Of a stretch of DNA of 64,000 nt, positions 14,380 through 48,885 are shown piece by piece. Position 1 is the first letter of the stretch, and each line of letters begins with the position of its first letter. The notes beneath the pieces are model-generated. The model saw nothing but the letters and a program-made list of their open reading frames with translations, was not told where the DNA came from and searched no databases. Where the stretch lies: positions 1,984,001-2,048,000 of the forward strand of contig CBDCOX010000002.1 in NCBI GenBank assembly GCA_965219995.1. The letters run 5' to 3'. The DNA is from Candidatus Latescibacterota bacterium. Its GTDB lineage: Bacteria > Latescibacterota > UBA2968 > GCA-2709665. A program made the position numbers and the translations under genes.

Positions 14380-14467
14380 CTTTACTTCCCTTCACATCTT
14401 CTCCCTATTGACAGGCCCGGCCGGTTGCCTCCTCTCGTCAAACACATCCTTGCAGGCTGGAGGACCT

Positions 14468-20909: not shown

Positions 20910-22877
20910 TCAATACCCGTGGATCGAATGCCCGCCGCCCGGAAACCAGACCATGTCCACAATCAACGAAACCCCCACGCCCGTCGAATAACCCACCAGA
21001 ACGCCAAGGAAAAACGGCACGTAGCGACGGTAGAGCGCGGCCCCGCCGATTCGTAATATGAGGAATTTGATAGCCCATGCCAGAAAGACCGAAAACACGG
21101 TATACCGTACCGAGGTTCCCGTACCGGCCAGCGCGAACCCCACGGGGTGGAAAGGCCACCAGGGAAACCGGTACTTGAGAAACGTCAACAACGACATCAC
21201 CGCCGCGCCAATGCCAAACAGACTCAGCTGCAAACGATGGGGCGGCTCCGGGTTGTTCATCTGGGTCAGTACACGTCCAAAACCGGATTTGCTGTACCTC
21301 GTGAACGGCCAATCGTTGAAATTATAGGCCCCGTACGTATATCCCAGATACAACGTAAACACAACCGAGAATATACACCCCAAACCGAAGGCCAGCAGTA
21401 GAGCAGCCAGCACACGCCGCCGCCCGTCTCGGGGGCAAACATCCGCCAATTTCGTGCCGTGGATTACCGACGGCATGAACAGTCCCTTGCCGTAGGACGC
21501 GACGCCGTTCGTGAATGCCAGCGTTGTCAGACTGGAACCCGACAGATTTCGCGACCCGAACAGCGACGTAACGAACCGTTGCGGCCCAACGGGCATGCTG
21601 ATGAATACCAGTCCCACGTCTGACACGATGCGCGCAACGCCCAGATACAGGACGAATGCCGCCAGAACGAACGCACAGGCCAGTACAAGACTCATCCCCG
21701 CCTGCCACCACCAGAAAACGGCGAAGAGCACGCACGCAGCCAGCCCGAACACCGCCGTCCGGAACGACATCATCTCGTCTTTCTCGTCCAGCGGCGCTGC
21801 CTTCCCGATCGCTTTCCTGAAGACCAGCCTCAAATGGTTCCTGGAAGTCCAGAATCCCCAACCCACCATCGCGAAAAACGCGCCCAGAGGCAGCCACTGA
21901 AAATCGCCCGACGCGTGGGACCACGAACTGGCGTTGTATCCCAGACGGTTCAGGATTCCGCTCCGAATGATGAACAGCAGATCGAAGAACCAGAGGCTGA
22001 ACAGGACGTCGATATTGGCGAAATAGCAGAAAGATATCGTGAACATGTTGATCCGTGTCCACAGACCAGGGAAGTAGCGTTCGAACCTGATCCAGGGACC
22101 CCAGCGGATATTCGGAATTTGCGGAAAGCCGGGAACGAAGTAGTTGATCATATTCCACGCCAGAATGCCGAACGCGACGGCGAAGCCAATCCAGAAAAGC
22201 CGTGGGAACTCCAATGACCGGGCACGTTCCGTAAGCTCCGTGACCGGGCGCAGAATCGGAAACGAAATGCGTTCGCTCTCCACCCACTGCTTGCGCAGAA
22301 TCACCGCGAGGCAGACGGAACCGAAGAAAAGAGCGGTAATCAGCCCCATCCAGCAAACCACCGGCACGAACCAGGCATTCCAGGGAATGGCGTCGCCGGG
22401 CGGCAGTCCTTCGAACAGGTGATTGAGCGTGCCGTTCGTGTTCCTCGGCGCCAGCCAGTGCGGAATATAGGGATGGAAGAATTCTCCCCACTGGTTCTCC
22501 GGCGTCGCGAAGTAGAAAGGCGCCGCGATCGCACCCAGGAAATACCCCGTCAGGCCCACAGACGGAATGGCCCCGCCGACCAGACCGCCCGCGAGCACGA
22601 CCAGGAGTTCCGTCGACGATAGCGCGTACCGATGCGAGAGTAACCGGCACAGCGGGTTCAGTCCCAGGGCAAGCAGGAGGTACAACAGCAGCGTACCCAT
22701 CGGAAAATGACTCAACGTCATGCGCGACGCGTGGACGACGTACTCCACGTAATTCACGACGACGTTCACCCCGACGGCCAGCAATCCGGCCAGCAAAACG
22801 CTGCGCAGCGTCACCGCCTTCCTGTCAAGTCCACCCTCGACTTCGGCCGGTACGGCAACGGCGGATGCTTCTGCCAT
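20910..22877 (-). CDS. DUF6785/DUF6784-type polytopic membrane protein (putative OPT-related transporter)
   Basis: Many hydrophobic segments, KQWVESERISFP, WWPFHPVGF, PFFLGVLVG motifs. Confidence 0.75.
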   Translation of the reverse strand: MAEASAVAVPAEVEGGLDRKAVTLRSVLLAGLLAVGVNVVVNYVEYVVHASRMTLSHFPMGTLLLYLLLALGLNPLCRLLSHRYALSSTELLVVLAGGLVGGAIPSVGLTGYFLGAIAAPFYFATPENQWGEFFHPYIPHWLAPRNTNGTLNHLFEGLPPGDAIPWNAWFVPVVCWMGLITALFFGSVCLAVILRKQWVESERISFPILRPVTELTERARSLEFPRLFWIGFAVAFGILAWNMINYFVPGFPQIPNIRWGPWIRFERYFPGLWTRINMFTISFCYFANIDVLFSLWFFDLLFIIRSGILNRLGYNASSWSHASGDFQWLPLGAFFAMVGWGFWTSRNHLRLVFRKAIGKAAPLDEKDEMMSFRTAVFGLAACVLFAVFWWWQAGMSLVLACAFVLAAFVLYLGVARIVSDVGLVFISMPVGPQRFVTSLFGSRNLSGSSLTTLAFTNGVASYGKGLFMPSVIHGTKLADVCPRDGRRRVLAALLLAFGLGCIFSVVFTLYLGYTYGAYNFNDWPFTRYSKSGFGRVLTQMNNPEPPHRLQLSLFGIGAAVMSLLTFLKYRFPWWPFHPVGFALAGTGTSVRYTVFSVFLAWAIKFLILRIGGAALYRRYVPFFLGVLVGYSTGVGVSLIVDMVWFPGGGHSIHGY

Positions 22878-23137
22878 CGTAACTATCCTCTTATCCTGTG
22901 ACACCCACAATGGCGAGCCGCCGGATCACCTGCGGATCCAGGACCAATGAGATCGGGATCAGCGATAAACACACTAATTCTGAGGCATTCTCCGGGACAC
23001 AGCAATATACAAAACCAACTTAATAAACACAAAAAGACCGGGCTCCAGCGTTCGAGCCCAGTATGTGAATCGTTGCAATCGAATCTGAATCCCCATCGGG
23101 TACGGCTTTCCTCGTGGGAACGGTATTTGCTATCAAA

Positions 23138-27261: not shown

Positions 27262-29730
27262 TTACCGCTCCAACCGGAACAGGACCTCCTTCTCCGCTTC
27301 CACGTCGCCGTTCTGGTCCACAACGCGAACCGTCAGCCGGTTCACGCCGGACTTGGCGTTTCTGAGGTCCATCTCGAAATACTCCTGAAGGTCCGTTTCA
27401 TCCCGGATTTGCTCCGTGGATACGGAAACCTCCGGGGTGCGTTCACCCCTGCGGAACAGCGTGCCTACACCCGCCCACAAGCGCCCGAACGTGCCGCCCT
27501 TCTCCGGCATCGAATGGATCGTGTAATGCAGCGTAAACCGGCTCTGGCCGAACGTGTCCGGCTTCAGCCCATAAGCTTCGTAATAGACAAACGGGTGCTG
27601 GTTCATCCGATAGGTCTTGGTGGTCATCGGAATTACCCAGATTCCGCCCCCCTTTGCGTATTTTTCCAGCCCGCCATCCGTCGATATCTGGAATCCCAGT
27701 TCCAGGCCGCTCAGCTTCAACGTATCCAGGGAATAGTCCTCGACCTCGAGTCGTTCCTTATAGATGCCCGAATGGCCGGAAACAAGGTCTTTGACCTGTA
27801 CACGCATATCGTAAGCGCCCGGCGTCACGTCCAGCGCGAGCTGATTCGGAATAAAGGTCCCCTTGCCCGTATAGAGCTCCTTCGACGTGCGCAACGCCAG
27901 TTCCTCGCTGTCCTGCAGCGTCTGTCCCGATACCGGATCGTACAACGCGATCGCACACCCCAGTTGGAAAACGGTCTGTTCGTCCGATTCCGACCCGCTC
28001 AGGCTGCGGGGCGGAATTCCATAATAGACTTCAACTCGCGTCTTGCCATTGGATCCCCGGAACGTCGCGCGATCGTAGTAGAAATCCAGAAATGCCTCGC
28101 GGCCGCCGGGAAGATAGTGTTCCGGCATCTGCCGTATGCTCCGGTTCATTACCATCGCGGGCGAATACTTCACCATCCGGCTGGTCCGCCGTAGCGCGCC
28201 TTCGTCGAATTCCGCCGCGGGCACGGGCGCGAAGTCGAACCTCCCACCCCCCAGTTCGTTGGTAAACACCACCTCGATGCCCCCCGCGACACCCGTATAT
28301 ACCCAGGACTCCCACTTGATGAAGGACATGAAGTCCCCTCCCGCCACCTGCGCGCGGTTTTGGGACAGGGTGACCACGTAATTGTCTCCATCCAGCGCCG
28401 ACATATCCGCGGGGGCCAGGGGTTCGTCGGCCAGAGCAGGCGCCCCCAGTTCCACCTCCAGAGGGTCCGGCGCCTCGCCCTGATCGGTACCCGGCGGCAA
28501 TTCAGCCGGGAAATCCAGGCCCACCTCGTGCATCCTGCGAACCGGGAATACAGGCCCACGTCCCACGTCCGCCATGCCCAGCGGCCCGTAGATATCGTGG
28601 GCGACGCGCTCCTTGATCCGCTCGACGGAAACCGGCATTGGCGGCGCCACGCTGCCGGACGTCGACCGGTATTCCGGTTCGCCGTATCGGATATAGACCT
28701 CCCCGCGCCGGTCCCACGGATACGCCAATTCGGAAAAAGAGGTTCGCGAATACCACACGCGCCGATAGTGCTCCAGCTTCCGCTCGTTCACCGAAGTCAT
28801 CAGGTCCGGGTCTCTTACCGACCAGAACCGCACGAGGTACTCCCTCCGTACGGCCGCATCATCCGCGGTCTCCCGATAGGCGTGGAGCTCTTCCCTGGAT
28901 GCAATCAGGCTAACGTCCTGGTACAACCGGCGTTCTTCGGACGGCATCCGTGAAAAACCGCGGCCGTAATACTGCATGGCCAGATCCAGGGCCTCCCGGC
29001 TCGCGCAGGCCTGCGCCACGACCGGCAGCAGCAAAGCCTCGTCCGCGGTTACCTCCAGGGAGTCCAGCGCTTCCGATGGCAAGTCCTCAAAAACACCCGT
29101 CCGGACAAAGGCCCCGACCACCGCCTGGACCACCGCCGGCTCCCTCGTCGGATCCACCGACAGAGAGCGCACGTAGGCGTCGACAGACTTGTCATAATCC
29201 TCGATATCGGAATACAGGCGCCCGAGGAGTCTGTGGGCCAGTTCGAAACGCGGCGACAGCGCCGCTGCCCGCGACGCGTGGTAAATCGTCTGCTCCGTAA
29301 ACCTGCCCTTTTCGCCCTCAGCGGTCCCGGACCGGTAGGACGCCAGCGCCATCCCGAAGTGGGCCGGCGCGAACCCGTCGTTCTGCGCAAGGGCCGACTG
29401 GAACGCCTCCCGCGCCCTCGTCAGGTCCGACTTCAGCAACCTCGTGTATCCAATGCGGGTATTGTGACCGGCCGGATCAGTCGTCAATTGCGGCCAGTAC
29501 GCCTTTACGGCCCGCTGCACCTCCCGGTCCGGGTCGAAAGGCAGGTTGCCAAAGACAGCCGGCATCTCGTACCCCTCAGCGACCCGCTGCCCCTCCGGGT
29601 CCGGTACGGCGGTTGAAGACCCTGCCGCTTCCGGTTTTGTCTGTTCGGCACGGGTAGGGAGACCGTTCGTCAGCACAAAGGTCAAAGCGGCGAACCAGAT
29701 AACCGTCCTCAATGATTGAATCCGGTACAT
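27262..29730 (-). CDS. Secreted TPR + GWxTD-domain protein
   Basis: Signal peptide, TPRs, FWSVRDPDLMTSVNERKLEHYRRVWY, PWDRRGEVYIRYGEP. Paralogous to the C-terminal part of 15783..19532. Confidence 0.85.
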   Translation of the reverse strand: MYRIQSLRTVIWFAALTFVLTNGLPTRAEQTKPEAAGSSTAVPDPEGQRVAEGYEMPAVFGNLPFDPDREVQRAVKAYWPQLTTDPAGHNTRIGYTRLLKSDLTRAREAFQSALAQNDGFAPAHFGMALASYRSGTAEGEKGRFTEQTIYHASRAAALSPRFELAHRLLGRLYSDIEDYDKSVDAYVRSLSVDPTREPAVVQAVVGAFVRTGVFEDLPSEALDSLEVTADEALLLPVVAQACASREALDLAMQYYGRGFSRMPSEERRLYQDVSLIASREELHAYRETADDAAVRREYLVRFWSVRDPDLMTSVNERKLEHYRRVWYSRTSFSELAYPWDRRGEVYIRYGEPEYRSTSGSVAPPMPVSVERIKERVAHDIYGPLGMADVGRGPVFPVRRMHEVGLDFPAELPPGTDQGEAPDPLEVELGAPALADEPLAPADMSALDGDNYVVTLSQNRAQVAGGDFMSFIKWESWVYTGVAGGIEVVFTNELGGGRFDFAPVPAAEFDEGALRRTSRMVKYSPAMVMNRSIRQMPEHYLPGGREAFLDFYYDRATFRGSNGKTRVEVYYGIPPRSLSGSESDEQTVFQLGCAIALYDPVSGQTLQDSEELALRTSKELYTGKGTFIPNQLALDVTPGAYDMRVQVKDLVSGHSGIYKERLEVEDYSLDTLKLSGLELGFQISTDGGLEKYAKGGGIWVIPMTTKTYRMNQHPFVYYEAYGLKPDTFGQSRFTLHYTIHSMPEKGGTFGRLWAGVGTLFRRGERTPEVSVSTEQIRDETDLQEYFEMDLRNAKSGVNRLTVRVVDQNGDVEAEKEVLFRLER

Positions 29731-29860
29731 CGTTTTCGTCCTCGTTTCAGGTTGGCGCCATCAGATCAGACCGCAACAGCAATCCTCGATACACGACGGG
29801 CGAAACGCGCACACTGTTCCCGATAACTATAGGATGCTCACGGGAGAAAATGGTTGCAAA

Positions 29861-30141
29861 AAACCGGTGAGACGCAAGACGGTAGACGGGAGATGACGTC
29901 CTTGCCCGATTGGCTCGTCCTTAATGCCTCTGGCAAGAGATGCAACCGCACAGGGCAATAAAACCGGTGAGACGCAAGACGGTAGACGGTAGATGACATC
30001 CTTGCCCGATTGGTCCTTCCACTATGCCTGCGGCAAGAGATGATACCGAACAGGCACTCACATCATCTCCCGTCTTACGTCTCCCGTCTACCCTCTTTTT
30101 GGCACTGATATCCTCTCACGTCTTACGTCTCCCGTCTCACC
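29861..30141. repeat. Composite repeat: two tandem 100-bp units plus two inverted copies of the 7-bp-period GGTGAGACG...AGATGA head
   Basis: aaaccggtgagacgcaagacggtagacgg at both 29861 and 29961. Reverse-complement heads at 30063-30092 and 30111-30141. Confidence 0.92.
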
Positions 30142-30164
30142 GCCTCTTTATGCCTGGAAACAAG

Positions 30165-30197
30165 AAAGGAGGACGGTCCCGCGGACCGCCCCCCTTT
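30165..30197 (-). terminator. Intrinsic terminator after the PorV-family gene
   Basis: Minus strand aaaggggggcggtcc-gcg-ggaccgtcctccttt-cttg, 22 nt after the stop. Confidence 0.7.
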
Positions 30198-30218
30198 GTG
30201 TTTACCGCCCGTCAGCCC

Positions 30219-31265
30219 TTAGAACGTTCCGCCCACCGACAGACGCATCGGCGGATCGAAGATTCCCAGATCCGCGTTATGGTAAGAGAGGTCCACGGTG
30301 ATCAGCTGACCGCCCGGGAGTTCGTGCTTCAGGCCGGCGCCGACGCTCCAGCTTTCGAGGGCCGTATGCGTCCGGTATCCGGCGCGAAGCGCCAGCGTGT
30401 TCTCCAGCCAGAGTTCCCCGCCCATGCGGGTGATCGGCCGGAAGTCCGTTACGAACTCGTGCTCGAGCGAGAGCGTGAAGTATCCCGGGTCGCCCTTCTG
30501 CCCGAAAATCTCCATCGCTCCACCGAGGGAGTACGTGGTGGGCATCACCGCCGTGAAACCGCCTTCCGTTGCCTTGACGTTCGGGCCCAGGTTCCGGAAA
30601 CTCATGGCGATCCTGCTGCTCCGGTACCCGGTGTAGAAGTGGGTGCCGATGCTGTAGTCCAGCGTGGACACCTTCTCCAGGTGAAGATCTTCCTGGATCC
30701 AGCGAATCTGACCGCCCAGCATGAATTTATCGGTCATCTTCTTCGCAAATACCGCACCCAGAGCGATATCACCTGCCCGAAACATGGTTCCCGTGCCCCA
30801 CGGCGCCGTCGGGGTGGTGACCTCCATCTCCTCCGTTGTAAAGCTGTTTACGGTAAACCCGATGACCCCGAAGCCGGCGTTGAACGCCAGCGCCCCGGAA
30901 ATCGTTGAGGAATTGGTCAACCAGCGGGTGTAATTCAGGGAATAGGCCACGTTTTCGATGTGCCCCAGGCCCGCGGCGTTCCAGAACGCGGACGAGATGT
31001 CGTCCGATATTGCCGTGTAAGCCCCGCCCATGGCCTCGGCGCGGGCGCTCTGGCCGATTTTCAGAAACGGGAACTCGGAGAGTCCCACGCGCTCGACCCA
31101 GAGACCCCAGGCCTTGTCGACGTTCTCCATCTTCGGATCGATCAACGCCCCGTCGCGCGACCCGGTGCCGGGCGCCGGCTGCTCAACCGCCCCCGCCGGC
31201 GTCACGGACAGGAGAGCGACGGTCACGAGGGCCAATCCCAAGATGATCCATCCTTTTTTCATCAC
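30219..31265 (-). CDS. PorV/PorQ family outer-membrane barrel
   Basis: Signal peptide, FLKIGQSARAEAMGGAYTAISDD..S.FWNAAGL, LALRAGY, terminal Phe. Confidence 0.88.
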   Translation of the reverse strand: MMKKGWIILGLALVTVALLSVTPAGAVEQPAPGTGSRDGALIDPKMENVDKAWGLWVERVGLSEFPFLKIGQSARAEAMGGAYTAISDDISSAFWNAAGLGHIENVAYSLNYTRWLTNSSTISGALAFNAGFGVIGFTVNSFTTEEMEVTTPTAPWGTGTMFRAGDIALGAVFAKKMTDKFMLGGQIRWIQEDLHLEKVSTLDYSIGTHFYTGYRSSRIAMSFRNLGPNVKATEGGFTAVMPTTYSLGGAMEIFGQKGDPGYFTLSLEHEFVTDFRPITRMGGELWLENTLALRAGYRTHTALESWSVGAGLKHELPGGQLITVDLSYHNADLGIFDPPMRLSVGGTF

Positions 31266-31292
31266 TAATCTCCTTAATCGTCGCGAGGTCCG

Positions 31293-33680
31293 TTAACGGA
31301 TCACCACAAACGTACCGGTCTTGATCTTACCGGCGGCCGCCGAACCTTCAACGCCATGCACGGCATAGAAATAGATTCCCGGGCCCACAAGCGCCCGGAT
31401 CGTGGAATAAGGACGGCCGGTCCAGCTTGTCTCGCTGGATGAAATGGCCTTCTGTCGCAATACCTGGATCAACTGTCCGGCGGTATTGAAGATATAGATG
31501 AACGAGTTTGACGGCACGTTCACAAACCGGATTTTCAGACCGCCGCCGTACTCGTTGGTGCCGTTGGCCATATAGGGGTTCGGCACCACCACGATGTCCC
31601 GTTCCAGCGCGTCGGCTGCCGCCACGTAGGGCAGCACGGGAGACCCGCGGTTTACCTGCAGGAAGTTGGAAAAAGGCCCCTCCTGCCCGTTCTGCAGGAA
31701 CTTCTGCGCCCTGGGCGGGAGATCCGCAAACGTCATGTTTCCGTCGTTGTTCGCCCAGTCGTTATGCGGTTCCTGGTAAGCCCGAATACTGTAGTAATAG
31801 AAGAATCCGGCGTTGGAACTCGCATCGGACCAGCCGTACATCCCAGGCCGTGCGGCGCGGCGGCCGTCATTCGCCTGGTTCGCCAGCCCAACCGCCGTAT
31901 TCTCGTTTCCTTCCGCCGCCGCCACGGGCCAGTCGGCGCCCGCGTCGTACGTGACACCCGCCGGCAGAGGCCCGCCAACCGGAATGTCGCCGACCAGCGA
32001 GAACGGACCCGTAGCCGTGAGCGTTCCCCGCAGTCCGCGGTATATACGGAACCCTGCAATGTCGGCGGAGCCGTAATCGGGATGAACGGCGCCCTGGGAC
32101 TCGGCCGCCCAGAACAGCTTCACCTTGGCGTTTTCGTCACTCTTGACGTAGACGTCGACGTCCGGAGGGCCGTCCGGAATGTCAAACCCGCTCTGATAGG
32201 CGAACAGAGCGTGCTCGAGGTGCTCGACAATGGCCTGCTCGCCCTGCAGGAAGCTGGCCTTGTCCGCCGTAAGCGACCACTGCCAGATGTCGATGGGGCT
32301 CTTGCCGGGGCCGGCATACTCGGCGCCGGAGCCGGCCACGTAGGCCACGATAACCTTGGCCTTGTCGCCGGGGCCGAGCGCCCACGGACCGTACACCTGC
32401 GCGTTCGTGAATCCGCCCACGGCCGTGGGATTGTCCTGTGCGGTCGCGGCGGTCAACTTGGAGAATGCCTCGGAAGGGGTCTCACCCTCGAGGACGGGCT
32501 CGTCATAGTCAGCCGTTGTGCGTACATTCCACCAGCCCTGGTAGGACGGCTGGTCTCCCGCGGGCTGCACGTACTGACCGGCGTCGTGCATGTTGAACGC
32601 GTGACGGGGGTCGTCCGGACTGTCCGCGAAAGCGATCGGCGCCATGCCCACGAATGAATGGGACGCCAGCTTGCCGTCGGGGAAGGCCATCTCCTTCAGG
32701 TCGGAGGTCTCGATATCCTTGATCCACGGGTCACCGGTATCCTCCCACGCCTTGAACGGGCTGTCGCCGTCCCACTGATAGCTCAGCTTGAGTCCCTGCG
32801 CCCTGGCCGCACTGATAAATGCCGGGCCGCCGGCGCCGCCGTCCACGTAGTTTCCGGCTTCCGTGTAGCGGAAGTTATCGTCTAGACCGTCGTCCAGCCA
32901 CCGCCACCAGCGTCCGCCGCCGGTGTTGTTGTCTGAGGTCTCATTGATCTTCCAGGTGGCCACCAGCGGCAGGTACACCTCGTTGTGACGGTCGCTGCCG
33001 GTGTTCTCCAGGGTGAATTCCGCGATCACGAAATCGTCGAACATCTGGTGGGACCAGTTGTGGACCTTGCGGGTGATCGTGATGTCGAACTTGTTGGTCC
33101 ACTTGGCAACCAGAATCTCCTCGGCAAACGAATCATCCGGCGTGTATTCGCCCGGAGAGTAGTTGCGGATGAGTCTGGGCGGCGCGCTGACGTCATTCTC
33201 GTCGGGCACGACCGCGCCCGGCCAGTAGTTGCTGGCCGGCGAGAACGACCCGGAACGCCCCTGCTCCCATTCCGTGGCCGCGCCCAGGTGCGCTTCAGGT
33301 CCGCTCGACGGGTCATAGACGAGCGGCGTGATATCGACGCTCTTGCCCCGCGGTCCGGTCCAGGCCGCATCCACGCCGCCGGGTCCCACGACCATGATCC
33401 ACGTGCCGAAGCCGACGGCGTTTCCGCCCCGGCGGGTATAGTTGGAACTGGCGTTGCTGCTGGGGATGTTCGCCCAGCCGGGATACCAGAACATATCCGG
33501 CTCGCCGGTCTGCCCGCTACCGAGGTTCCACCCGCCCATGGTGCCATCCGAGTTCCAGCTGATCTGGACGTGGCTCCGGCTGGTGGACAGCCGCGGGGTG
33601 TCGCTCTGGTCTACGGCCCAGGCGCCCACTGGCAGGAGCAAGCCGCAGACAAGCGCCATAAGCTTGATGCCTGGTTTCAT
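31293..33680 (-). CDS. Secreted protein with Fn3-like domain and T9SS-type C-terminal sorting domain
   Basis: Signal peptide, GFRIYR...YYYSIRAY, then IVVVPNPY...IRFVNVP...IYIFNTAGQLI...W...GIYFYAV...TFVVIR. Confidence 0.75.
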   Translation of the reverse strand: MKPGIKLMALVCGLLLPVGAWAVDQSDTPRLSTSRSHVQISWNSDGTMGGWNLGSGQTGEPDMFWYPGWANIPSSNASSNYTRRGGNAVGFGTWIMVVGPGGVDAAWTGPRGKSVDITPLVYDPSSGPEAHLGAATEWEQGRSGSFSPASNYWPGAVVPDENDVSAPPRLIRNYSPGEYTPDDSFAEEILVAKWTNKFDITITRKVHNWSHQMFDDFVIAEFTLENTGSDRHNEVYLPLVATWKINETSDNNTGGGRWWRWLDDGLDDNFRYTEAGNYVDGGAGGPAFISAARAQGLKLSYQWDGDSPFKAWEDTGDPWIKDIETSDLKEMAFPDGKLASHSFVGMAPIAFADSPDDPRHAFNMHDAGQYVQPAGDQPSYQGWWNVRTTADYDEPVLEGETPSEAFSKLTAATAQDNPTAVGGFTNAQVYGPWALGPGDKAKVIVAYVAGSGAEYAGPGKSPIDIWQWSLTADKASFLQGEQAIVEHLEHALFAYQSGFDIPDGPPDVDVYVKSDENAKVKLFWAAESQGAVHPDYGSADIAGFRIYRGLRGTLTATGPFSLVGDIPVGGPLPAGVTYDAGADWPVAAAEGNENTAVGLANQANDGRRAARPGMYGWSDASSNAGFFYYYSIRAYQEPHNDWANNDGNMTFADLPPRAQKFLQNGQEGPFSNFLQVNRGSPVLPYVAAADALERDIVVVPNPYMANGTNEYGGGLKIRFVNVPSNSFIYIFNTAGQLIQVLRQKAISSSETSWTGRPYSTIRALVGPGIYFYAVHGVEGSAAAGKIKTGTFVVIR

Positions 33681-33703
33681 ACTTGCTTCTCCCTTTCTTT
33701 AAT

Positions 33704-33735
33704 AACGGGGGGCGGGAAAACAATCGCCCCCCGTT
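33704..33735 (-). promoter_or_regulatory. Intercistronic stem-loop between the TBDR and CTD-protein genes (mRNA stabiliser or partial terminator)
   Basis: aacggggggcg...cgccccccgtt perfect stem with no long U tract. Confidence 0.6.
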
Positions 33736-33749
33736 GAATGTTACCGGGT

Positions 33750-36700
33750 TTAGAAGTTGACTTTCAGGCCCACGCCCACCTCGCGCGGCTTCCCGTAGTA
33801 CCGGGTCAACTCGTTGTAATCCCCGTACGTCAGGTAGTCCTGGTCGTTCGGCCGCGGCACGTTCAGACCCCAGCGGACGAAGTCCGGATAGGAACCGCCC
33901 ACGGGGCTGTCCTGCTGGTTGAACAGGTTGAAGATCTCCAGGTAGGCAACGGCGTTCCTGTGCCCGCCCTCCACGAGGGTCTTCTCAACCTGCAGGTCGG
34001 TCCAGGTGCGGATGGGTCTGTGACGCAGCTCCGGCTGCTTTCCGGGCGGCGTGTACCAGATTGGACTGCCGCTCTGGATGCGCCAGACCATATTGGCGCG
34101 CAGGCCGCCCACCGCGTGGAACTGGCGCAGCCCGGGGCCGAAGTCCATGGGCGTGTCCAGGTACAGCGAGAGGCTGGACTGGACGCGCAGGTCGGACCCC
34201 TTGGGGTTGAACAGACGGCCGCCGCCGTAGGTGGGCTGCCACACGCCGTTCATATTGGCCGGCGCATCGTAGGCCTTCTGGATGTCCATGAACTCGAAGA
34301 TCACGAACTGATAGCTGTTGGTGATCCCTCTTGCCCTGCCGCGCCACCAGCTGGCCACCCTCGTGGCGAGTTTCATCCGCTCTTCCAGTGAGAAATCCTT
34401 ACGCACGTACGCCGAGCCGTTCCATTCCCAGTCGTGGTACTGGTCCGGATTCATCACGTACGAGGAATCCGGGTAGAACATGGTGGCGTTGGAGCCCACG
34501 CGCGCCGTAGACGCCCAGCCGAAGTTGACGGCCGCGTTGAACGAGAAGTAGTGGCTGAAGCCCTTGCGCACGTGCAGCTCGAGACCTCGCATGTCCTGGT
34601 AGGTGCTGGGCTTGCGGCCCCAGACCCACGTTGTGCGCTGCGGCTCGTACCAGTAGCGGCTGCCGGAGGAAATCTTCCCGATAGCACTCTTGTAGTATGC
34701 CGCAATACCCGCCGTGTAGTCGGCCACGAAGTTCCAGTCGGCGCCCGCCTCGTAAGCCCGGGTACGCGTGAGGGACACGTAGGGGTTCGCCATCCGGACC
34801 TGACCGTGCAGACCCCGGAACGCGTCCCACGCCACGTGGGCGTCGGGGCCGTTCGCGCGCCACTGTTCGCGGAAGTACTCGAACAGGTCGGGCACCTTCG
34901 CGTACAGCCCGGCCGTAAAGTGGAAGGCGGACCGTTGCGTGATGGGATGGGAAATCCCGAAGCGCGGGCTGAACTGGGTCGCCCACTGCGGGTCGACCGT
35001 GACCATGTCCACGTGCTTGATGAGCCAGCGGTTCTGTGGCGTCTGAAGCTGCGAGACGTTGTAGAACCGGTGGTTGGTGTACAGCGCGTCGAACCGGATG
35101 CCCGCGTTCATCACCATCCCCTCGAACTCCATCTTGTCCTGCAGGTAGAACCCGATCTGAATGGGGTTGATGGGGGCCTTCACGTCGGGGAGATTGCCCG
35201 AGTGGGTAATGAAGTCCACGATGCGCTGGCTCGGGTTGGGCGAGTTGTAGTTCAGGTAATAGATGCTGAACCGGGTGAGATCCACGCCCCCCTTTACGAA
35301 ATGGCCCTTGGTGACCTGAGAAGACACGTCCAGCTTGAGGTTCAGCCGGCTGCGGTCCGCGATGGTGTAATTCGCGACGTTATTGGGCTTCACGTTGAAC
35401 CAGCCGTCCAGGTCTTTCTCGCCGAATACCGTTACCGGGAAACCGAAGCTGTCCTTCGGCCAGCCGGTTTCCTGGGTGTCTTCCAGCGTCGTGTAGAACG
35501 ACACCCTGGCTTCGTAAAACGTTTTCGGCGACACCGTGTGGGTCAGGGACGCGTAGGTGACCCGGTCGGTTACCTTGCGCCCGCCCGCGCCCGACCCCTC
35601 CGGCAGGAACACGTTCTGGCCGTTGGAGGCCCGGTCGCGCTGGGTGTTCGTTCCCCTGTTGTAATATTCCGCCACCGAGTAAATCTGCCCGATGCTCACC
35701 TTCGCGTCGGCGCCCGGGCGGAACGTCAGCTTGGCGTTACCCCTGAAATCCAGCGGCGTTTCCAGCGTGGGAAACCCGCCCGACATCACGCTGGTCAGGC
35801 TGGTGGCGCCGAGGCTCGGGTCGAACGTGGCATTGCGTACGGACGTGTTCAACACATCCGTGGGCTGCCTGGTCCACCGGGCGCTCGCAAAGAAGCTGGC
35901 CTGGTCGCCCAGCGGGCCCGAAACGCCGCCCTCGATATATGAACCCTTTATGTCTGTATAGTCCACGGCCCTGTGCGCCAGACCGACCTCGTCGTCGGGC
36001 GTTCCCGGAACGCCATCCTCGCCGTTGCTCAGGATCACCGTTTCGGCGCGCCATTCCCGATCGTCCCACTTGAGCTTGTCACGGTGATACGCGCTTTCGT
36101 AGAGGTTTGACCCCCAGTGCTTCTGGCTCGGCGGAGTATAGCGGAAATCGCCCCAGCCCCGGAAGTCCCGCCCGCCGTCTTTCGTAATGATGGAGACCGC
36201 GCCGGACTCCAGGTTTCCGTATTCGGCGCTCGCGCCTCCCGAAATCACCGTGATTTCCTGCACGGCGGTCTTGGAGGGACCGGTGAACTGCCGGCCGTAC
36301 CCGTCATTGTTCGGCAGGACAATGCCGTCCACCATCAGGATGCCGTCTTTCGAGTCCCCGCCCCGGATGACGTTGGCGTTGGTGAGCTGCACGCCCGGAT
36401 TCAGCGTGACCAGATCCGTGACCGACCGCGCCATCGGCAGCGACTCCAGCTGCTCGGCGCCCATGACGTAATGGCTGGTGGTCTTGTCGGGCTCCACCGG
36501 CGGGCGTTCCGCCGTAACCACGAGTTCCTCGGCTTCCAGCGCCGTTTCTTTCAGCTGGAAATCCACGGTCGTGGTGAAGTCCGCCTGTATACGCACGTCC
36601 GTCTTGGTAACGGCGTTGTACCCGACCATAGAGGCCACGAGAGTCAGGTTGCCCGGGTCGACCGAAAGGAGCAGATAGTATCCGTCCGCATCCGATTGGG

Positions 36701-36875
36701 CGCCCCTTCGCGTGCCCTCGATCACGACGTTCACGCCGGGCAGCGGTTCGCCGGACGCCGCGTCCATCACGCGCCCGGTCAGTTTGCCGGTCTGGCCCGC
36801 GAACACGCCGGCGGTGAGGCCGACGAGCACAAAGACCGCAACCGGCAAAGCCACAAACAACTTCCATCTGTTCAT
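33750..36875 (-). CDS. TonB-dependent receptor with N-terminal carboxypeptidase-regulatory-like domain
   Basis: Signal peptide, GKLTGRV.D..SGEPLPGVNV, plug IRGG...VDG...GGASAEYGN..SG, FSPRFGISHPIT, C-terminal GLKVNF. Confidence 0.92.
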   Translation of the reverse strand: MNRWKLFVALPVAVFVLVGLTAGVFAGQTGKLTGRVMDAASGEPLPGVNVVIEGTRRGAQSDADGYYLLLSVDPGNLTLVASMVGYNAVTKTDVRIQADFTTTVDFQLKETALEAEELVVTAERPPVEPDKTTSHYVMGAEQLESLPMARSVTDLVTLNPGVQLTNANVIRGGDSKDGILMVDGIVLPNNDGYGRQFTGPSKTAVQEITVISGGASAEYGNLESGAVSIITKDGGRDFRGWGDFRYTPPSQKHWGSNLYESAYHRDKLKWDDREWRAETVILSNGEDGVPGTPDDEVGLAHRAVDYTDIKGSYIEGGVSGPLGDQASFFASARWTRQPTDVLNTSVRNATFDPSLGATSLTSVMSGGFPTLETPLDFRGNAKLTFRPGADAKVSIGQIYSVAEYYNRGTNTQRDRASNGQNVFLPEGSGAGGRKVTDRVTYASLTHTVSPKTFYEARVSFYTTLEDTQETGWPKDSFGFPVTVFGEKDLDGWFNVKPNNVANYTIADRSRLNLKLDVSSQVTKGHFVKGGVDLTRFSIYYLNYNSPNPSQRIVDFITHSGNLPDVKAPINPIQIGFYLQDKMEFEGMVMNAGIRFDALYTNHRFYNVSQLQTPQNRWLIKHVDMVTVDPQWATQFSPRFGISHPITQRSAFHFTAGLYAKVPDLFEYFREQWRANGPDAHVAWDAFRGLHGQVRMANPYVSLTRTRAYEAGADWNFVADYTAGIAAYYKSAIGKISSGSRYWYEPQRTTWVWGRKPSTYQDMRGLELHVRKGFSHYFSFNAAVNFGWASTARVGSNATMFYPDSSYVMNPDQYHDWEWNGSAYVRKDFSLEERMKLATRVASWWRGRARGITNSYQFVIFEFMDIQKAYDAPANMNGVWQPTYGGGRLFNPKGSDLRVQSSLSLYLDTPMDFGPGLRQFHAVGGLRANMVWRIQSGSPIWYTPPGKQPELRHRPIRTWTDLQVEKTLVEGGHRNAVAYLEIFNLFNQQDSPVGGSYPDFVRWGLNVPRPNDQDYLTYGDYNELTRYYGKPREVGVGLKVNF

Positions 36876-36905
36876 CTGAAAACCTCCTTCGAGAATACTC
36901 AGCGG

Positions 36906-37604
36906 CTATTTACCGCTGAAGTAGAACTTAATCCCGGCTCCGAAGTCCAGCATCTGCAGAGGGAAGGTCTCGGAAAGCTCCCAGTCTTCAAGACCCCGAA
37001 GGTCCCCGATCATTATATTGTATCGTCCGCGGAGGTCCACCGCCACGTTTTCGATCACGAACGCTTCGACGCCCAGTCCGGCGTTAATCCCCAGCGCGAA
37101 CCGCTGGTCGGTGAACGGTTCCAGTTCGAGGACCAGGTCTCCCGTCTGCCCGGGCCACAGCAGCCCGCTGACGTCGTTCTTGTACCGGTAGAATCCGCCG
37201 CCCACCGCGACGTACGGGGCGAAACTGCTGGCCGCAAACGGCTGGCCGACCTGCCGCAGGCGGACGAGCGCGTTTACCAGCAGGCTGTTCAGGCTCATGT
37301 TGCTTGACGCGTTCGGGCTGGTATAGGCTTGACCGTCCGTCCAGGTGAACGTGCGTGTCAGCAGGCTCCCGTCTGTGAAATTCCCGTGGTGAAACTCCAG
37401 CTCCACGGTAACGTTCGACGCCGGCACGTACGCCGCGTTCAATCCGAACTTGGAATCGTTGTCGTACCACTCGCCCAGACCGAAGACCGGCACGTTGTAA
37501 TTCGCGAACACGCCGACCCCCCAACTTCCTTCCTGGGCAACGGCAGGCCAGGTTGAAACCGCCAACACAAGAATCAACAGGCCAACAACCCTGAACACCT
37601 TCAT
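36906..37604 (-). CDS. Small outer-membrane beta-barrel protein (OmpA-like/porin family)
   Basis: Signal peptide, PYVAVGGGFY, GINAGLGVE, amphipathic C-terminal strand. AAGGAGGT RBS before ATG 37604. Confidence 0.8.
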   Translation of the reverse strand: MKVFRVVGLLILVLAVSTWPAVAQEGSWGVGVFANYNVPVFGLGEWYDNDSKFGLNAAYVPASNVTVELEFHHGNFTDGSLLTRTFTWTDGQAYTSPNASSNMSLNSLLVNALVRLRQVGQPFAASSFAPYVAVGGGFYRYKNDVSGLLWPGQTGDLVLELEPFTDQRFALGINAGLGVEAFVIENVAVDLRGRYNIMIGDLRGLEDWELSETFPLQMLDFGAGIKFYFSGK

Positions 37605-37745
37605 ACACACCTCCTTACTTTGGAAGATGACTTATCCCCACCACCCTGCCAAACGTTTGCAATCTGCTGCGAAACAACTAACGACGTGCGAATCATGCTC
37701 TGCAAAAATACTCGCGGTCTGCTCGACTTTCCACCCCCTCTCGGA

Positions 37746-37787
37746 CAAAAAAAGGGGCATCACTGTCCGGAAACCGGCAGCGCCCCG
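37746..37787 (-). terminator. Intrinsic terminator inside the 5' leader of the OMP-TBDR operon
   Basis: Minus strand ggggc-gctgccgg-ttt-ccggacagtgat-gcccc-ttttttt. Confidence 0.7.
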
Positions 37788-37914
37788 TTAATACACTCCT
37801 GCTTCATGCGTATGGAATTTATGATAAACGACTACGCAGTAGCAATTTAGCATAAGCCGACCATTTGACGCGTTGAATCGCTGTTGTTGAGCATAACCGC
37901 AGGTTAATCGACAG

Positions 37915-37943
37915 AAGATATACAACATTTTCAGAGTTGTCAA
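37915..37943 (-). promoter_or_regulatory. Sigma70 promoter upstream of the OMP-TBDR operon
   Basis: TTGACA-N17-TATCTT on the minus strand. Confidence 0.7.
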
Positions 37944-41431: not shown

Positions 41432-44400
41432 ATGGCCCGGTGGCCCCTTCTATTCGGCATCTTCCTGTTCACGTGCGGCAGTGCTGTGGGCCAGGAGTAT
41501 TTCGGCAAGAACAAGGTGACGTATGACGATTACGACTGGCACTATCTGGAGACGGAGCATTTCAAGATCTATTTCGACAAGGCGTCTCAGCCTGCGGCGG
41601 AGTTTGCGGCGAAGGAGGCGGAGCGTGCGCTGGTGCGTCTGGAGAAGGATCTGAAGTATACGTTGAAGGATCGATATCCGATTGTGATCTACAATTCTCA
41701 CAACGGGTTTTCGGTGACGAACATCACGCCGACGGAGCAGTCGGAGTTCACGGGGGGTTTTACGGAGTTTGCACAGGGTCGTGTGGTGATCCCGTATACG
41801 GGGTCGTATAGCGATTTCCGTCACGTGATCCACCATGAGCTGGTGCACGTGGTGACGCTGGAGATGTGGACGGGCGGCGGTTGGCTGGGTGCGATGATGA
41901 CGCAGACGGCGTCGTTGCCGCCGTTGTGGATTGCGGAGGGAGTGGCGGAGTATTTGTCACAGGGTGGATGGGACGGCGAGGCGGACAATTTCATGCGTCA
42001 TGCGACGATCACGGGGTATGTGCCGGGGATGATGTCGCTGAGCGGTGCGTTTGCGTATAAGGGGGGTCAGTCGGTCTTCGTGATGATCGAGGAGGAGTAT
42101 GGCAAGGACAAGGTGGCGGAGTTCATATCGTCGTTCCGTTCCGCGCGATCGGTGGACAAGGCGCTGAAGGCGTCGGTGGGTGAGGGTGTGGAGGAGCTGG
42201 ACGAGAAGTGGCAGTTGTGGTTGAAGCGTCAGTATTGGAACGAGATCAACCTGCACCATCCGTCGGAGGAGGTGGCGAAGCAGTTGACGGAGGCGGGCGC
42301 GGGTCGCGGTTTTTACAATATCGCGCCGTCGTTTTCGCCGCAGGGGGACAAGATCGCGTATGTGACGGAGCGTGAGGGTACGTTCGACATCTATCTGATG
42401 TCGGCGATCGACGGACAGGATCTGGGCCGGTTGGTGGAGGGGGAGCGATCGTCGGATTTCGAGGGGTTGTTCGTGCTGCGGCCCGGGATCACGTGGTCGC
42501 CGGACGGGAAGCAGATCGCGTTTGCGGCGAAGTCGCGCAACAAGAACACGTTGTATACGCTGGACGTGCGGAAGAAGCGGGTGACGAAGCGATTCGAGTT
42601 CGATCTGGACGGGTTGTTCGAGCCGACGTGGTCGCCGGACGGGAAGCAGATCGCGATCGTGGGGTTGAAGGACGGGTGGTCGGACGTGTATATCGTAAAC
42701 GTGGAGGACGAGGGTCTGCGTCGGATGACGCGGGACCCGTATGACGAGAAGCACCTGGACTGGTCGCCGGACGGGGAGTGGATCGCGATCAGTTCGGACC
42801 GTCCCGGCGCGGATCTGGAATACGACGGGTCGAAGGACTTTGTGTTCGGCACGTATAACGTGTTCGTGCTGCGTGCCGACGGCAGCGAGATCCGGCAGGT
42901 GGTGGAGAGCGAGGTGAACGACAGTCATCCCACGTGGGGACCGGACTCCCAGACGCTGGCGTTCGTGTCGGACAGGACGGGGGTGGGCAACATCTACATT
43001 GCGCACGTGGACGGGTCGCAGATGTATCCGATCAGCAATCTGCTGTCGGGAGCGCGGTATATCGACTGGAGCGCGGACGGCAAGAAGCTGGCGTTCACGA
43101 CGTTTCACCGCGGGGGCTATGACATCTTCGTGATGAAGGACCCGCGGCAGAAGAAGCGCGGGATGGAGGACCTGCCGCTGACGCGGTATGCGAAGCGGCT
43201 GGCGGGCATCGAAGACCGCCCGTTCGTGGAGTTGCAGAAGGAACGCAGGCAGGAAGCCGCACACGGCGGCGCGGAACCCGACAGTTCGGTGGCGGCCGCA
43301 GACGCTGACACGGCGGTGGCGACAGCGGCGGCGGACAGGAAGGTGGAGACGTGGATGTCGGACCAGATGGCGCTGGCGGCCGCCGAAGCGCGCGGAGACG
43401 ACGACGGGGCGGCTGCCGACGGCGACAGCCTGGAGACCGACGGCGACAGGGAACTGACGCTGCGAGACTGGAACAAGGCGTTCACGATCAACAAATACCG
43501 CGTGAAACTCAAACCCGAATTCTTCGGGGCCAACGCGGGCTTCGACACCTTCTACGGTGTCAGCAGCCTGCTTCAGTTGTCGCTGACCGACGTGATGGGC
43601 GATCACCGCGTCGTCATTCAGACCGGGTTGAGCTTCTCCCTCAAAGACAGCGATCTCTTCCTCGGATACCAGAACCTCAAGAACCAGACCAACTACTACC
43701 TCAGCGCCATCCACACGCGCCTGTTCTTCTTCGACAGCGGTCAGTTGAACGCGGATCGCTATATCGGGGCCGAAGCCAGCCTGGTTCGGCCGTTCAGCCG
43801 ATTCAGCAGGATGGAACTGGGCACGCGCGGCATCAGGATTTCCCGTGAACGCCTGGAACGGGAACGCTATGACAATCGCTGGGTACGGCGCGGCTTCACC
43901 GGCAGCAGCCTGCGCGGGCTTTCGGGCACCGAAGTCGATTCACGGGGAGCCGTGGTTTCCTACCTGGCCCTCGTCGACGACAACTCGCTGATGGGCGGTT
44001 TCGGCGCCGTGGACGGTCACCGGATGCGCTTTGGCGTTGAGGGAAGCTGGGCGGGAATGCGCTTTGCGGCGTTGAACGCGGATCTGCGACAGTATCTGTT
44101 CACGCTTGGCGAATACACCTTCGCCCTGCGTCTGTCCGGAGGCACCAGCTTCGGCCCGAACAAGAGGATCTATTTCGTGGGGGGCGTCAACAACCCCGTG
44201 AACCCCAATTTCTCCACGTTTGCCAACGTGGACCAGGACCGGATATTCTTCTCCAGTTTCGTCTGGCCGCTTCGGGGCGTGGAATTGTTCGAGCTGGCGG
44301 GCGACTCATACGTACTGGCCAATGCGGCGTTCCGCTTCCCGCTCATCCGGGAACTGGCCATGGGCTGGCCCCTGCCGCTCTTCTTCCAGCACGTTCAGGG

Positions 44401-47937: not shown

Positions 47938-48885
47938 TCAGAAATACAATGAACCCGAGATGCGGTAGGTATTGTCCAATTCGCCGTGCTCGAGAAAGGC
48001 GAGGTCGAAAGCAACCCGCCCACGAAGCCGGACGCCCGCGCCCGCGGTAAAGTGACTTCCCCTTGCGCCAAGGCGGAAAGCCAGCTTGTTCCGGTACAGG
48101 TATTCCACGCCAATCCGCACACCCTGGAAACTGTCTGCCTCGGATTCATCCTCACCGATGTTCAAACTCCCGCTGCAGGTGATCCGTCCGTCAATCGCCG
48201 GGACCGACCGGGCGAGCGCCAGGCCGATGACAAGAACCGTGGGAACCCGGTCCGTAGAGCCCGTGTCGAAGGTGATCTTCATGGGGATGAGATTGCGAAT
48301 CTTCATGCCGGCCGTCAGGCCGGGCCGCGGCACATACAGCATCCCGAAATCAAACCCGAAACCCGATCCCGTACCGGTGCCCAGCCTTCGGGACACAAGC
48401 TTCACGCCAGTGCCGGCGAACAGATTCGGCCTCAGGCCTCGGCCGAAGCCAAGGTGAAGGTGGTATTCGGTTGTACCGACGACACGAGTGACGACGGGTC
48501 TGTTGTCCGGACCCGGCGAAAGTGCGGGGTCCTCAAGGGTCGTGAGCTTGACGTTGTCGACACCGAGGCGTGTCAGACCGATGCCGAAGCCGCCGTGCGG
48601 AGACGGGCCGCACACCGTGAAGACGTCATGTTTGACCGTGCCGCCAAACTGTTCGGCATGCTGGATCTGCAATTCTCTCTGCCGGAGTCTGTGAAGGCCC
48701 GCCGGATTCCAGTAAATGGCGGTTGCATCGTCACTGACGGCCACAAACGCGCTTCCCATCCCAAGCGGTCTCGCGCCCGTGCCCAGCAGCAGAGGGTCTT
48801 CCGAGTATCGCGTTTCGTTCTGCGCGGAAACGGGTGCGGGCCTCGACAGAGCCAGCATCAGTGTCATGAGGAGAAACGGCTTCAC
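47938..48885 (-). CDS. PorV/PorQ family outer-membrane barrel
   Basis: Signal peptide, GTGARPLGMGSAFVAVSDDATAIYWNPAGL, terminal YF. Confidence 0.88.
   Translation of the reverse strand: MKPFLLMTLMLALSRPAPVSAQNETRYSEDPLLLGTGARPLGMGSAFVAVSDDATAIYWNPAGLHRLRQRELQIQHAEQFGGTVKHDVFTVCGPSPHGGFGIGLTRLGVDNVKLTTLEDPALSPGPDNRPVVTRVVGTTEYHLHLGFGRGLRPNLFAGTGVKLVSRRLGTGTGSGFGFDFGMLYVPRPGLTAGMKIRNLIPMKITFDTGSTDRVPTVLVIGLALARSVPAIDGRITCSGSLNIGEDESEADSFQGVRIGVEYLYRNKLAFRLGARGSHFTAGAGVRLRGRVAFDLAFLEHGELDNTYRISGSLYF

Follow-up and report, generated by a model that had tools for sequence, protein, structure and literature searches.

A conserved cassette encoding a TonB-dependent receptor, a secreted protein with a type IX secretion-like C-terminal domain and a PorV-like barrel in Latescibacterota: a possible SusD-less uptake module

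Organization of the locus

We analyzed a 64,000-nucleotide (nt) stretch of the genome of a Candidatus Latescibacterota bacterium (GenBank assembly GCA_965219995.1, contig CBDCOX010000002.1, positions 1,984,001–2,048,000 of the forward strand), which is referred to here as the window. The subject of the analysis is a run of genes on the minus strand of the window that encodes a TonB-dependent receptor (TBDR), a secreted protein of 795 amino acids (aa), here named X795, and two further outer-membrane barrels. A previous reading of the sequence (the original prediction) had described five genes as an operon resembling a polysaccharide utilization locus (PUL) without SusD. All five open reading frames (ORFs) were present on the minus strand as predicted, and are listed below in the order of transcription.

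36906–37604 (or 37610), minus strand: small outer-membrane beta-barrel, the first gene of the cassette, 232–234 aa (OMP_b-brl, PF13505, 35.7 bits against a cut-off of 28.7)
33750–36875, minus strand: TBDR, 1041 aa (CarbopepD_reg_2, 78.6 bits; Plug, PF07715, 36.4 bits against 23.9)
31293–33680, minus strand: X795, secreted protein of 795 aa (no Pfam or NCBIfam family at threshold)
30219–31265, minus strand: PorV/PorQ-family barrel, 348 aa (NF033709, 159 bits against 90)
27262–29730, minus strand: TPR-GWxTD protein, 822 aa (TIGR04514, 49.7 bits against 28)

On inspection of the sequence, the ATG of the small-barrel gene at position 37604 was found to be preceded by an AAGGAGG site.

Conservation of a four-gene cassette

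One genome per species was scanned with the X795 alignment, and 68 loci were collected with 10-kb flanks. The loci were found by similarity to X795 alone, without the use of neighboring genes, which were then located by tblastn with the proteins of the window. By the labels of the depositors, 54 loci were from Latescibacterota, 10 from Gemmatimonadota, one from a KSB1 metagenome-assembled genome (MAG) and one from a Gammaproteobacteria MAG, and two were unlabelled. Several of the Gemmatimonadota-labelled loci were 92–95% identical in X795 to Latescibacterota-labelled loci, so the phylum labels disagree. The loci labelled Gemmatimonadota or Gemmatimonas were L006, L007, L012, L013, L017, L018, L044, L046, L055 and L057. 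The five proteins of the window were 91–100% identical to those of two Latescibacterota-labelled MAGs (L001 and L002); for L002, which comes from OZ241917.1, the range was 96–100%.

The TBDR gene lay directly upstream of X795, on the same strand, in 67 of the 67 loci that could be checked (L015 begins inside X795), and the small-barrel gene lay upstream of the TBDR gene in 64 of 64 (this count leaves out L015, L017, L038 and L040, which are at contig ends). The PorV-like gene was directly downstream of X795 in 66 of 67 checkable loci (L053 is cut by the end of the contig), and the sole locus without it, L038, contains frameshifted remnants of the TBDR and X795. The conserved order of TBDR, CTD (C-terminal domain) protein and PorV-like barrel on which the original prediction depended therefore holds across seven diverged paralogue groups, and the small barrel is an obligate member, a status that the prediction had not recognized. 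The median intergenic gaps were 22, 39 (between the TBDR and X795) and 30 nt, and therefore there is no room for a SusD gene inside the cassette. This arrangement is far beyond chance, because the loci were found through X795 alone and yet the same neighbors recur in 64–67 of the 64–67 checkable loci. That these genes are neighbors without any shared function is very unlikely and hardly credible, given the identical order and orientation in loci whose paralogues are 24–49% identical, the tiny gaps and the inheritance as blocks described below.

Two complete cassettes in tandem were found in L061, and the ends of further cassettes were seen in L018 and L064. Additionally, an IS4-family transposase gene (L028, 7557–8681, minus strand) splits the TBDR of a group-C cassette. 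In the Gammaproteobacteria-labelled MAG (L038, 1–3507), the match to X795 ends at residue 571, and the locus is either a decayed copy or part of a low-quality assembly.

The X795 sequences formed seven groups (A–F and the KSB1 locus), with the window in group A. All five groups with multiple members were recovered as clades in each of the four gene trees (FastTree, support 0.90–1.0), which indicates that the cassettes were passed on as blocks without exchange of parts. Each genome contained one to five diverged copies, typically of groups A and D or of groups B and E; these counts are lower bounds from a scan with two peptide patterns. The identity between paralogues was 24–34% for X795, 32–40% for the TBDR and 36–46% for the PorV-like barrel, X795 being the most diverged. 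The between-group distances of these three proteins were only modestly correlated with one another (0.39–0.47), and their correlation with those of the small barrel was approximately 0.

The GWxTD gene, the fifth member of the predicted operon, was adjacent to the cassette in 30 of the 68 loci: all 19 group-A loci have it on the same strand, 11 of 12 group-E loci have it in convergent orientation, and none of the 37 others has it within the flanks examined. It was therefore rejected as a core part, and the predicted five-gene operon is reduced to a core of four genes. The suggestion that GWxTD serves the system as a periplasmic assembly factor is not supported either: the gene is not a constant part, and nothing was found that points to an assembly role. 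Paralogues of GWxTD are frequent in these loci, and the window itself contains a second, larger TPR-GWxTD protein of 1249 aa (15783–19532, minus strand; TIGR04514, 57.6 bits) downstream of the DUF6785 gene described below.

The TonB-dependent receptor

The TBDR consists of a signal peptide, a CarboxypepD_reg-like N-terminal domain, the TonB-box-like sequence EELVVTAERP, a plug and a large C-terminal region that ends in F; we take this order of N-terminal domains to be that of SusC proteins. EELVVTAERP occupies residues ∼116–125 and is presumably a TonB box, judging from the consensus D/E-T-x-V-V-T-A. Residues A122, E123, R124 and P125 were invariant, and the motif E-x-x-V-x-AERP was retained, in 18 of 18 aligned TBDRs, and the terminal residue was aromatic in 17 of the 18. 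The TBDR profile matched the plugs of FepA and PirA (1e-14) and also the N-terminal parts of the SusC homologues 9hfj and 8aa4. A search of the PDB with the single sequence gave no match, and no Pfam, NCBIfam or PDB model matched residues ∼260–1041, where a 22-strand barrel would be expected. On the SusC family model the receptor reaches only 54 bits of the 368 required, so it is SusC-like in its layout without being a member of that family.

We also considered whether the cassette is a device for export or display, in which three barrels place X795, as an adhesin or surface-layer-like protein, on the cell surface. Such a role would account for the presence of three barrels for one cargo and for a cargo without a known ligand, and part of the S-layer glycoprotein model NF052345 bears a weak likeness (45 bits) to the receptor's N-terminal domain. 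The conserved plug and TonB-box-like motif are, however, hallmarks of import, the cassettes are found next to genes for catabolism, for regulators of sugar use and for a polytopic membrane protein, and we know of no described TBDR that exports a protein. We therefore give this explanation a slight chance of being correct.

X795 and its C-terminal domain

X795 has a variable N-terminal part, a conserved core, a probable fn3-like stretch at residues ∼505–665, and a C-terminal domain (CTD) of T9SS (type IX secretion system) type at residues ∼697–795. A hydrophobic N-terminal segment was present in 68 of 68 members and a lipobox-like motif in none of them (0/68), in agreement with the description of X795 as a secreted non-lipoprotein. 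The N-terminal 150 residues were the least conserved, and G, W, Y, D and N are abundant throughout the protein's sequence.

Searches of Pfam, NCBIfam and the PDB gave no sequence match to X795 at threshold. A word-indexed search found 19 relatives, and HMMER with the X795 alignment gave 3890 cluster representatives at E ≤ 1e-3, of which 89 reached E ≤ 1e-30; many of the weaker matches covered the last 100–190 residues and probably represent the CTD only. When 44 relatives were scanned against Pfam, P0098 alone contained domains at threshold (Ig-like, of the ASH/HYDIN type), and the sub-threshold matches comprised one fn3 (P0089), six CHU_C and two FlgD_ig. In the ESM Atlas, which was entered through P0001 (94% identical to X795), the neighbors were unnamed “hypothetical” clusters from Gemmatimonadota, Ignavibacteriota and Fidelibacterota, one of which had fn3 in 51% of its members; when the CTD and fn3 families were excluded, no usable named match was obtained. 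The recognizable stand-alone enzyme that would have spoken against the original prediction was thus found in none of these collections. A pairwise comparison of nine segments of X795 (hhalign) detected no pair of internal repeats above 50% probability.

In each of the 68 members the CTD is located at the extreme C-terminus; it contains the conserved motifs VVPNP, KIRF, GIYF and GTF. C-terminal slices from 23 of 25 sampled loci matched the C-terminal end of models of T9SS CTD-bearing proteins (E ≤ 0.01): PorZ in 17 slices, TIGR04183 in 11 (all below 23 bits, maximum 21.4) and PorU in one. The slices of L015 and L035 matched no T9SS CTD model. Of 48 database relatives picked for their C-terminal match, 35 matched such models and eight passed the TIGR04183 cut-off. 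Because the slices and the relatives match the CTD ends of the PorZ, PorU and TIGR04183 models, the last ∼100 residues of X795 appear to be a diverged T9SS-type CTD. The predicted T9SS-type CTD is in this way supported at the level of the family, whereas for the protein of the window itself it holds only below threshold.

The PorV-like barrel

The only significant relative of the PorV-like barrel in the PDB was PorV of F. johnsoniae (6h3i_F; 3e-5 with the single sequence and 6.6e-19 with the profile). All 15 barrels examined passed the NF033709 cut-off of 90 bits (138–165 bits in 14 paralogues, 159 in the window). The equivalog models of PorV (NF033710, cut-off 250) and PorQ (NF033711, cut-off 220) gave 68 and 73 bits with the window barrel, and at most 72 and 90 bits, respectively, with its paralogues. 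In the 1.46 Mb of the window and the loci, only two full-length PorV-like ORFs lay outside the cassettes. Part of the original prediction, that X795 is held by a PorV paralogue of its own, is thereby strengthened: the pairing is one-to-one, all 15 barrels belong to the family, and the CTDs match the PorZ and PorU models, which is consistent with such a tether.

Bacteroidota rely on a single PorV for numerous cargoes of type A. That each X795 has one PorV-family barrel to itself speaks for a stable, specific pair and against a shuttle for general secretion, and the likeness of the X795 CTD to the retained CTDs of PorZ and PorU points in the same direction. PorZ and PorU are, according to part of PMC10202324, the two T9SS proteins that keep their CTD and stay bound to PorQ and PorV, respectively. 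We found no clear correlation between the leaning of a barrel toward PorQ or PorV and that of its CTD toward PorZ or type A. A search of the PDB with the small barrel gave no match.

One of the two ORFs outside the cassettes lies in the KSB1 locus (L035, 14128–22018). There, a PorV/PorQ-like gene comes after the gene for a 2249-aa cohesin/fn3/CarboxypepD_reg protein, the last 120 residues of which match the PorU model at its CTD end (E 1.3e-6), and the two form a second kind of pair of CTD cargo and private barrel. The window contains a second PorV/PorQ-family gene outside the TBDR cassette (47938–48885, minus strand; NF033709, 116 bits, with a partial “PorV2” likeness), the start of which is overlapped by a 279-aa ORF of no family (48882–49721, minus strand).

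Genes surrounding the cassette

A further gene, missed by the original prediction, accompanies most cassettes:

20910–22910, minus strand: DUF6785+DUF6784 polytopic membrane protein (PF20581, 389.3 bits against 25; PF20580, 83.2 bits against 26.4)

This gene was on the strand of the cassette in 61 of the 68 loci; of the others, L011, L017 and L053 are cut by contig ends, and L019, L035, L038 and L057 lack the gene in the flank examined. In groups B and C it directly follows the PorV-like gene. The protein has 13 hydrophobic segments of 19 residues, some of them overlapping, its relatives carry no functional name, and the PDB contained no match. We consider it a probable inner-membrane partner of the cassette. 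Literature searches, which did not cover subscription journals, found no paper on DUF6785 or on GWxTD.

The flanks are catabolic: they encode sulfatases, FGE-sulfatase and heparinase II/III-like, GH4, GH130-like, BNR, DUF4838/GH67N, Rha78A-type Ig and pectate-lyase-like proteins, together with PhyH dioxygenases, GFO/IDH/MocA proteins, aldo-keto reductases, zinc-dependent alcohol dehydrogenases (Zn-ADH), xylose-isomerase-like TIM barrels and an SSF symporter. In group A, the cassette is followed by genes for GWxTD, a DegT-type aminotransferase, a gamma-glutamyltransferase, DUF6785 and a class-III aminotransferase. In some loci a regulator gene lies just upstream. Of the 12 group-E loci, 5 have a LacI-type regulator, as does 1 of the 17 group-A loci; 6 of the 15 group-D loci have a GntR/FCD regulator, and 2 of the 3 group-C loci have a response regulator, accompanied in one of them by a sigma-54 activator. 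The SusD family was absent from the 38 ORFs of the window and from 156 (72 + 84) flank ORFs from 18 loci. The description of the locus as SusD-less and PUL-like agrees with this absence and with the sugar and sulfatase genes of the flanks.

The same X795 family recurs amid differing enzymes, X795 diverges the fastest, and its N-terminal 150 residues are the least conserved part; because of these features, X795 follows the pattern expected of a substrate-binding partner like SusD rather than of a substrate-specific enzyme. The operon and its uptake role could also be retained with a different X795, namely, a surface-bound or released enzyme of a new family, or a free-standing glycan-binding protein like SusE/F, which the barrel only secretes or holds. 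X795 has 53 invariant positions, including 12 Asp/Glu together with H487, K205 and R35, its G-, W-, Y-, D- and N-rich sequence is unlike the helical SusD, the CTD is preceded by an fn3-like stretch, a feature of many secreted proteins that act on glycans, and the loci contain few obvious endo-acting extracellular enzymes, all of which would suit this alternative. An enzyme would nevertheless be expected to change with the substrate, whereas one X795 family is found in all seven groups despite their differing catabolic flanks; moreover, no enzyme family was matched in Pfam, NCBIfam or the PDB, and the strict position after the TBDR mirrors that of susD after susC. We therefore regard this alternative as unlikely, though far from negligible.

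The following genes of the window were also observed. The run at 544–15628 consists of genes for the catabolism of glycans and sulfate, a content that fits a sulfated-glycan lifestyle; it encodes PhyH, a 924-aa protein of the heparinase II/III-like kind, an aldo-keto reductase, GFO/IDH/MocA, Zn-ADH, a sulfatase, an NHL-repeat protein and FGE-sulfatase. At 41432–44683 (plus strand) lies a gene for an unusual 1083-aa fusion of Peptidase_MA_2, PD40/TolB-like propeller repeats and an Omp85-type C-terminal match, and at 54322–59214 (plus strand) a gene for a 1630-aa protein with Peptidase_M28 and FtsX-like permease matches.

Transcription signals

The following signals were found around the genes of the window:

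37915–37943, minus strand: sigma-70-like promoter site TTGACA-17-TATCTT (10 of 12 consensus matches)
37747–37786, minus strand: hairpin with a run of seven T, in a leader of ∼300 nt (kept in most group-A upstream regions)
30165–30197, minus strand: terminator-like hairpin of 15 pairs, 3′ of the PorV-like gene
29860–30148, no strand assigned: repeat block (95 nt twice and 48 nt twice, partly inverted) in the 488-nt spacer between the PorV-like and GWxTD genes (29731–30218)

The TTGACA of the promoter-like site was retained as the −35 element in 11 of 12 aligned orthologous upstream regions of group A. The claim of one strong promoter is thereby supported in part, but the hairpin and T-run precede the first gene, and the number of promoter-like sites in the whole region (5) was not clearly above that in shuffled sequences (3.0 ± 1.7). 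The hairpin at 37786–37747 is possibly an attenuator or the end of a small RNA. In the leader as a whole (37605–37943, minus strand, ∼300 nt), between the promoter-like site and the first gene, the block GGCTTATGYTAAATTGCTACYGCGTAG is strongly conserved. The leader may act as an attenuator or as a riboswitch-like element, or it may be a small RNA in its own right. No Rfam family matched it at E ≤ 0.1, and RNAalifold on unevenly trimmed slices gave 12 pairs, none with a compensatory change.

The terminator and repeat predicted before the GWxTD gene were both located. The length of the spacer varied from ∼40 to ∼2800 nt among orthologous loci, and this several-fold variation suggests a small mobile element or one resembling repetitive extragenic palindromic (REP) sequences. 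Since the hairpin and the repeat-filled spacer precede it, the GWxTD gene is probably its own transcription unit. The proposal of five genes behind one promoter is thus better read as four genes that may share a promoter plus a separate GWxTD gene.

Proposed uptake mechanism

Taken together, the gene content and the sequence matches lead us to favor, tentatively and with the balance close to even, a SusD-less, PUL-like module for TonB-dependent uptake, in which X795 would be tethered by its cognate PorV-like barrel rather than by a lipid. The four genes would import glycan-derived or related organic nutrients, with paralogous copies specific for different substrates, in the place that SusC/SusD has in Bacteroidota. 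X795 would be exported by Sec and would cross the outer membrane by means of its T9SS-type CTD, which would then remain uncleaved and bound to its own PorV/PorQ-family barrel, as PorZ is bound to PorQ and PorU to PorV, so that X795 would be held at the cell surface without a lipid anchor. There it would capture the substrate and pass it, either as a lid or as a neighboring binding protein, to the adjacent TBDR, which would import it with energy from TonB, as the SusC-like N-terminal domain, the TonB-box-like motif and the plug suggest. The DUF6785/DUF6784 protein probably then carries the substrate over the inner membrane to the enzymes encoded alongside.

Several observations weigh against this scheme, and its weakest points are the claim of a lid and the presumed T9SS. 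From the sequences we infer that X795 is at the surface, tethered by the barrel and in contact with the TBDR, and likewise what the small barrel and the DUF6785 protein do. The SusC/RagA model TIGR04056 gave the TBDR 54.2 bits against a cut-off of 368.25, at model positions 2–191 only, and no model matched the TBDR barrel. The X795 of the window reached 20.0 bits (last 115 aa) and 15.0 bits (whole protein) on TIGR04183 (type A, as PF18962), the cut-off of which is 23, and its last 115 aa reached 19.6 bits against 27 on CHU_C (PF13585; type B, as TIGR04131), so the type B cut-off was not reached either. A search of the PDB with the CTD profile found no solved CTD structure (FlgD at E 1.2 only). 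General scans of the 38 window ORFs and 156 flank ORFs (18 loci), a small part of any genome and not a genome-wide search, turned up no T9SS core family (SprA/Sov, PorK–N or PorU), and part of PMC10202324 states that CTD proteins are restricted to Bacteroidota. The invariant acidic residues with H487, K205 and R35 would also suit an enzyme or a calcium-binding fold. Among proteins of 1393–3975 aa, no fused form with the X795 core was found, which is weak evidence. In group-B loci, an SSF symporter lies beside DUF6785, so DUF6785 need not be the permease. Finally, the branching order between the groups is unresolved and differs between trees: the X795 tree joins groups D and E (SH-aLRT 96) and the PorV tree joins D and A (74), but the PorV data do not reject D+E (p-AU, the P value of the approximately unbiased test, 0.135), and the X795 data reject D+A at p-AU 0.0195 for a clade that was chosen after inspection of the trees.

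The low scores of the window CTD, the restriction of CTD proteins reported in part of PMC10202324 and the lack of a T9SS core gene in the regions scanned would also fit a cell without a T9SS. X795 would then be a periplasmic binding or processing protein with a merely Ig-like C-terminal beta-sandwich, and the PorV-like barrel, as a FadL-type channel, would join the TBDR and the small barrel in the import of compounds that are amphipathic or hydrophobic. PorV has the FadL fold according to part of PMC12578637, PhyH dioxygenases recur in the flanks and one locus contains a ceramidase-like gene. In contrast, the CTD with its four motifs is at the extreme C-terminus in every member, the matches of 23 of the 25 slices are to the CTD ends of PorZ, PorU or TIGR04183, and eight relatives pass the type A cut-off. 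Furthermore, the only significant solved relative of the barrel is PorV and not FadL, and sugar and sulfatase genes dominate the flanks. We therefore assign this alternative a distinctly low chance.

Comparison with known systems

The module for which we argue shares several features with the SusC/SusD (RagA/RagB) PULs: a TBDR of ∼1000 aa in which a CarboxypepD_reg-like domain comes ahead of the TonB box and plug, a partner gene directly downstream that diverges faster than the transporter, and the occurrence of several paralogues in one genome, within catabolic loci that have regulators of their own. The differences are that the TBDR stays below the SusC cut-off (54 against 368 bits), that its partner has no homology to SusD, no lipobox (0/68) and a T9SS-type CTD at its end, that the cassette has two more barrels as obligate members, and that the hosts are Latescibacterota (and one KSB1 locus) rather than Bacteroidota. 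Lids other than SusD are known for TonB-dependent transporters (TBDTs) of Bacteroides, as part of a preprint describes (bioRxiv 10.1101/2023.03.17.533168). By the same account, these alternate lids (BtuG, XusB, DUF4625/DUF4876/DUF4374) are non-SusD extracellular partners encoded beside the TBDT and are proposed to bind the substrate on the outer face of the transporter, and in these respects X795 would be like them; they are, however, Bacteroidota lipoproteins for small substrates, whereas X795 has no lipid anchor and has a dedicated PorV-like barrel.

The placing of a barrel gene beside that of a CTD protein is likewise a feature of the T9SS pairs PorQ–PorZ, PorV–PorU and PorP/SprF–type B. 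Part of PMC10202324 reports clustering of the genes for type B CTD proteins with the genes for their PorP/SprF barrels, and part of PMC9143113 reports PorP–PG1035 and SprF–SprB complexes. As in such pairs, the CTD of X795 would, in our proposal, remain in place and anchor X795 on its barrel, and the CTDs match the ends of the PorZ and PorU models. The known pairs are secretion or attachment machinery or gliding adhesins, whereas the pair described here sits in a TBDR operon, its barrels are not orthologues of PorV, PorQ or PorP/SprF, and its hosts are outside Bacteroidota. A further likeness, drawn from a description in part of PMC12578637, is to BamG–BamH, in which the loops of a 14-stranded FadL/PorV-like barrel hold an extracellular protein in a multi-barrel outer-membrane complex; this pair belongs to the barrel assembly machinery, however, and involves neither a TBDR nor a CTD.

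The cassette thus appears to resemble SusC/SusD and the alternate lids in its working, and the T9SS in the principle of a CTD on a cognate barrel, without being a member of either. Literature searches that left most subscription journals outside their coverage turned up no account of a CTD protein encoded with its own PorV-like barrel in a TBDR operon, and none of a T9SS in Latescibacterota.

A bolder form of the scheme is that FCB (Fibrobacterota–Chlorobiota–Bacteroidota) bacteria outside Bacteroidota need no surface lipoprotein to place a substrate-capturing partner on a TonB-dependent transporter. Their uptake complex would combine three barrels (the TBDR, the small barrel and a private PorV/PorQ-like barrel) with one cargo, a CTD-secreted partner from a new family that is docked on the last of these barrels, and it would have been duplicated and retuned for different substrates. 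This is possible, although we would sooner expect it to be wrong than right. If true, lidded TonB-dependent uptake would exist in a second, independent architecture, and the PorV–CTD interaction would have a structural use that is not secretory.

Implications for uptake outside Bacteroidota

TBDTs with extracellular partners have so far been described almost only in Bacteroidota. The authors of bioRxiv 10.1101/2023.03.17.533168 guess, in part of the preprint, that other diderms cannot export lipoprotein lids to the cell surface. If the tethering of X795 proposed here is correct, a CTD with a private PorV-like barrel would be another route to a surface partner, and PorV-family barrels and T9SS-type CTDs would have wider roles beyond Bacteroidota. 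Working functions would also be provided for three uncharacterized families, namely, X795, DUF6785/DUF6784 and the small barrel. In addition, the cassette is a practical marker for nutrient-uptake loci in uncultured Latescibacterota, in which PUL prediction based on SusD finds nothing.

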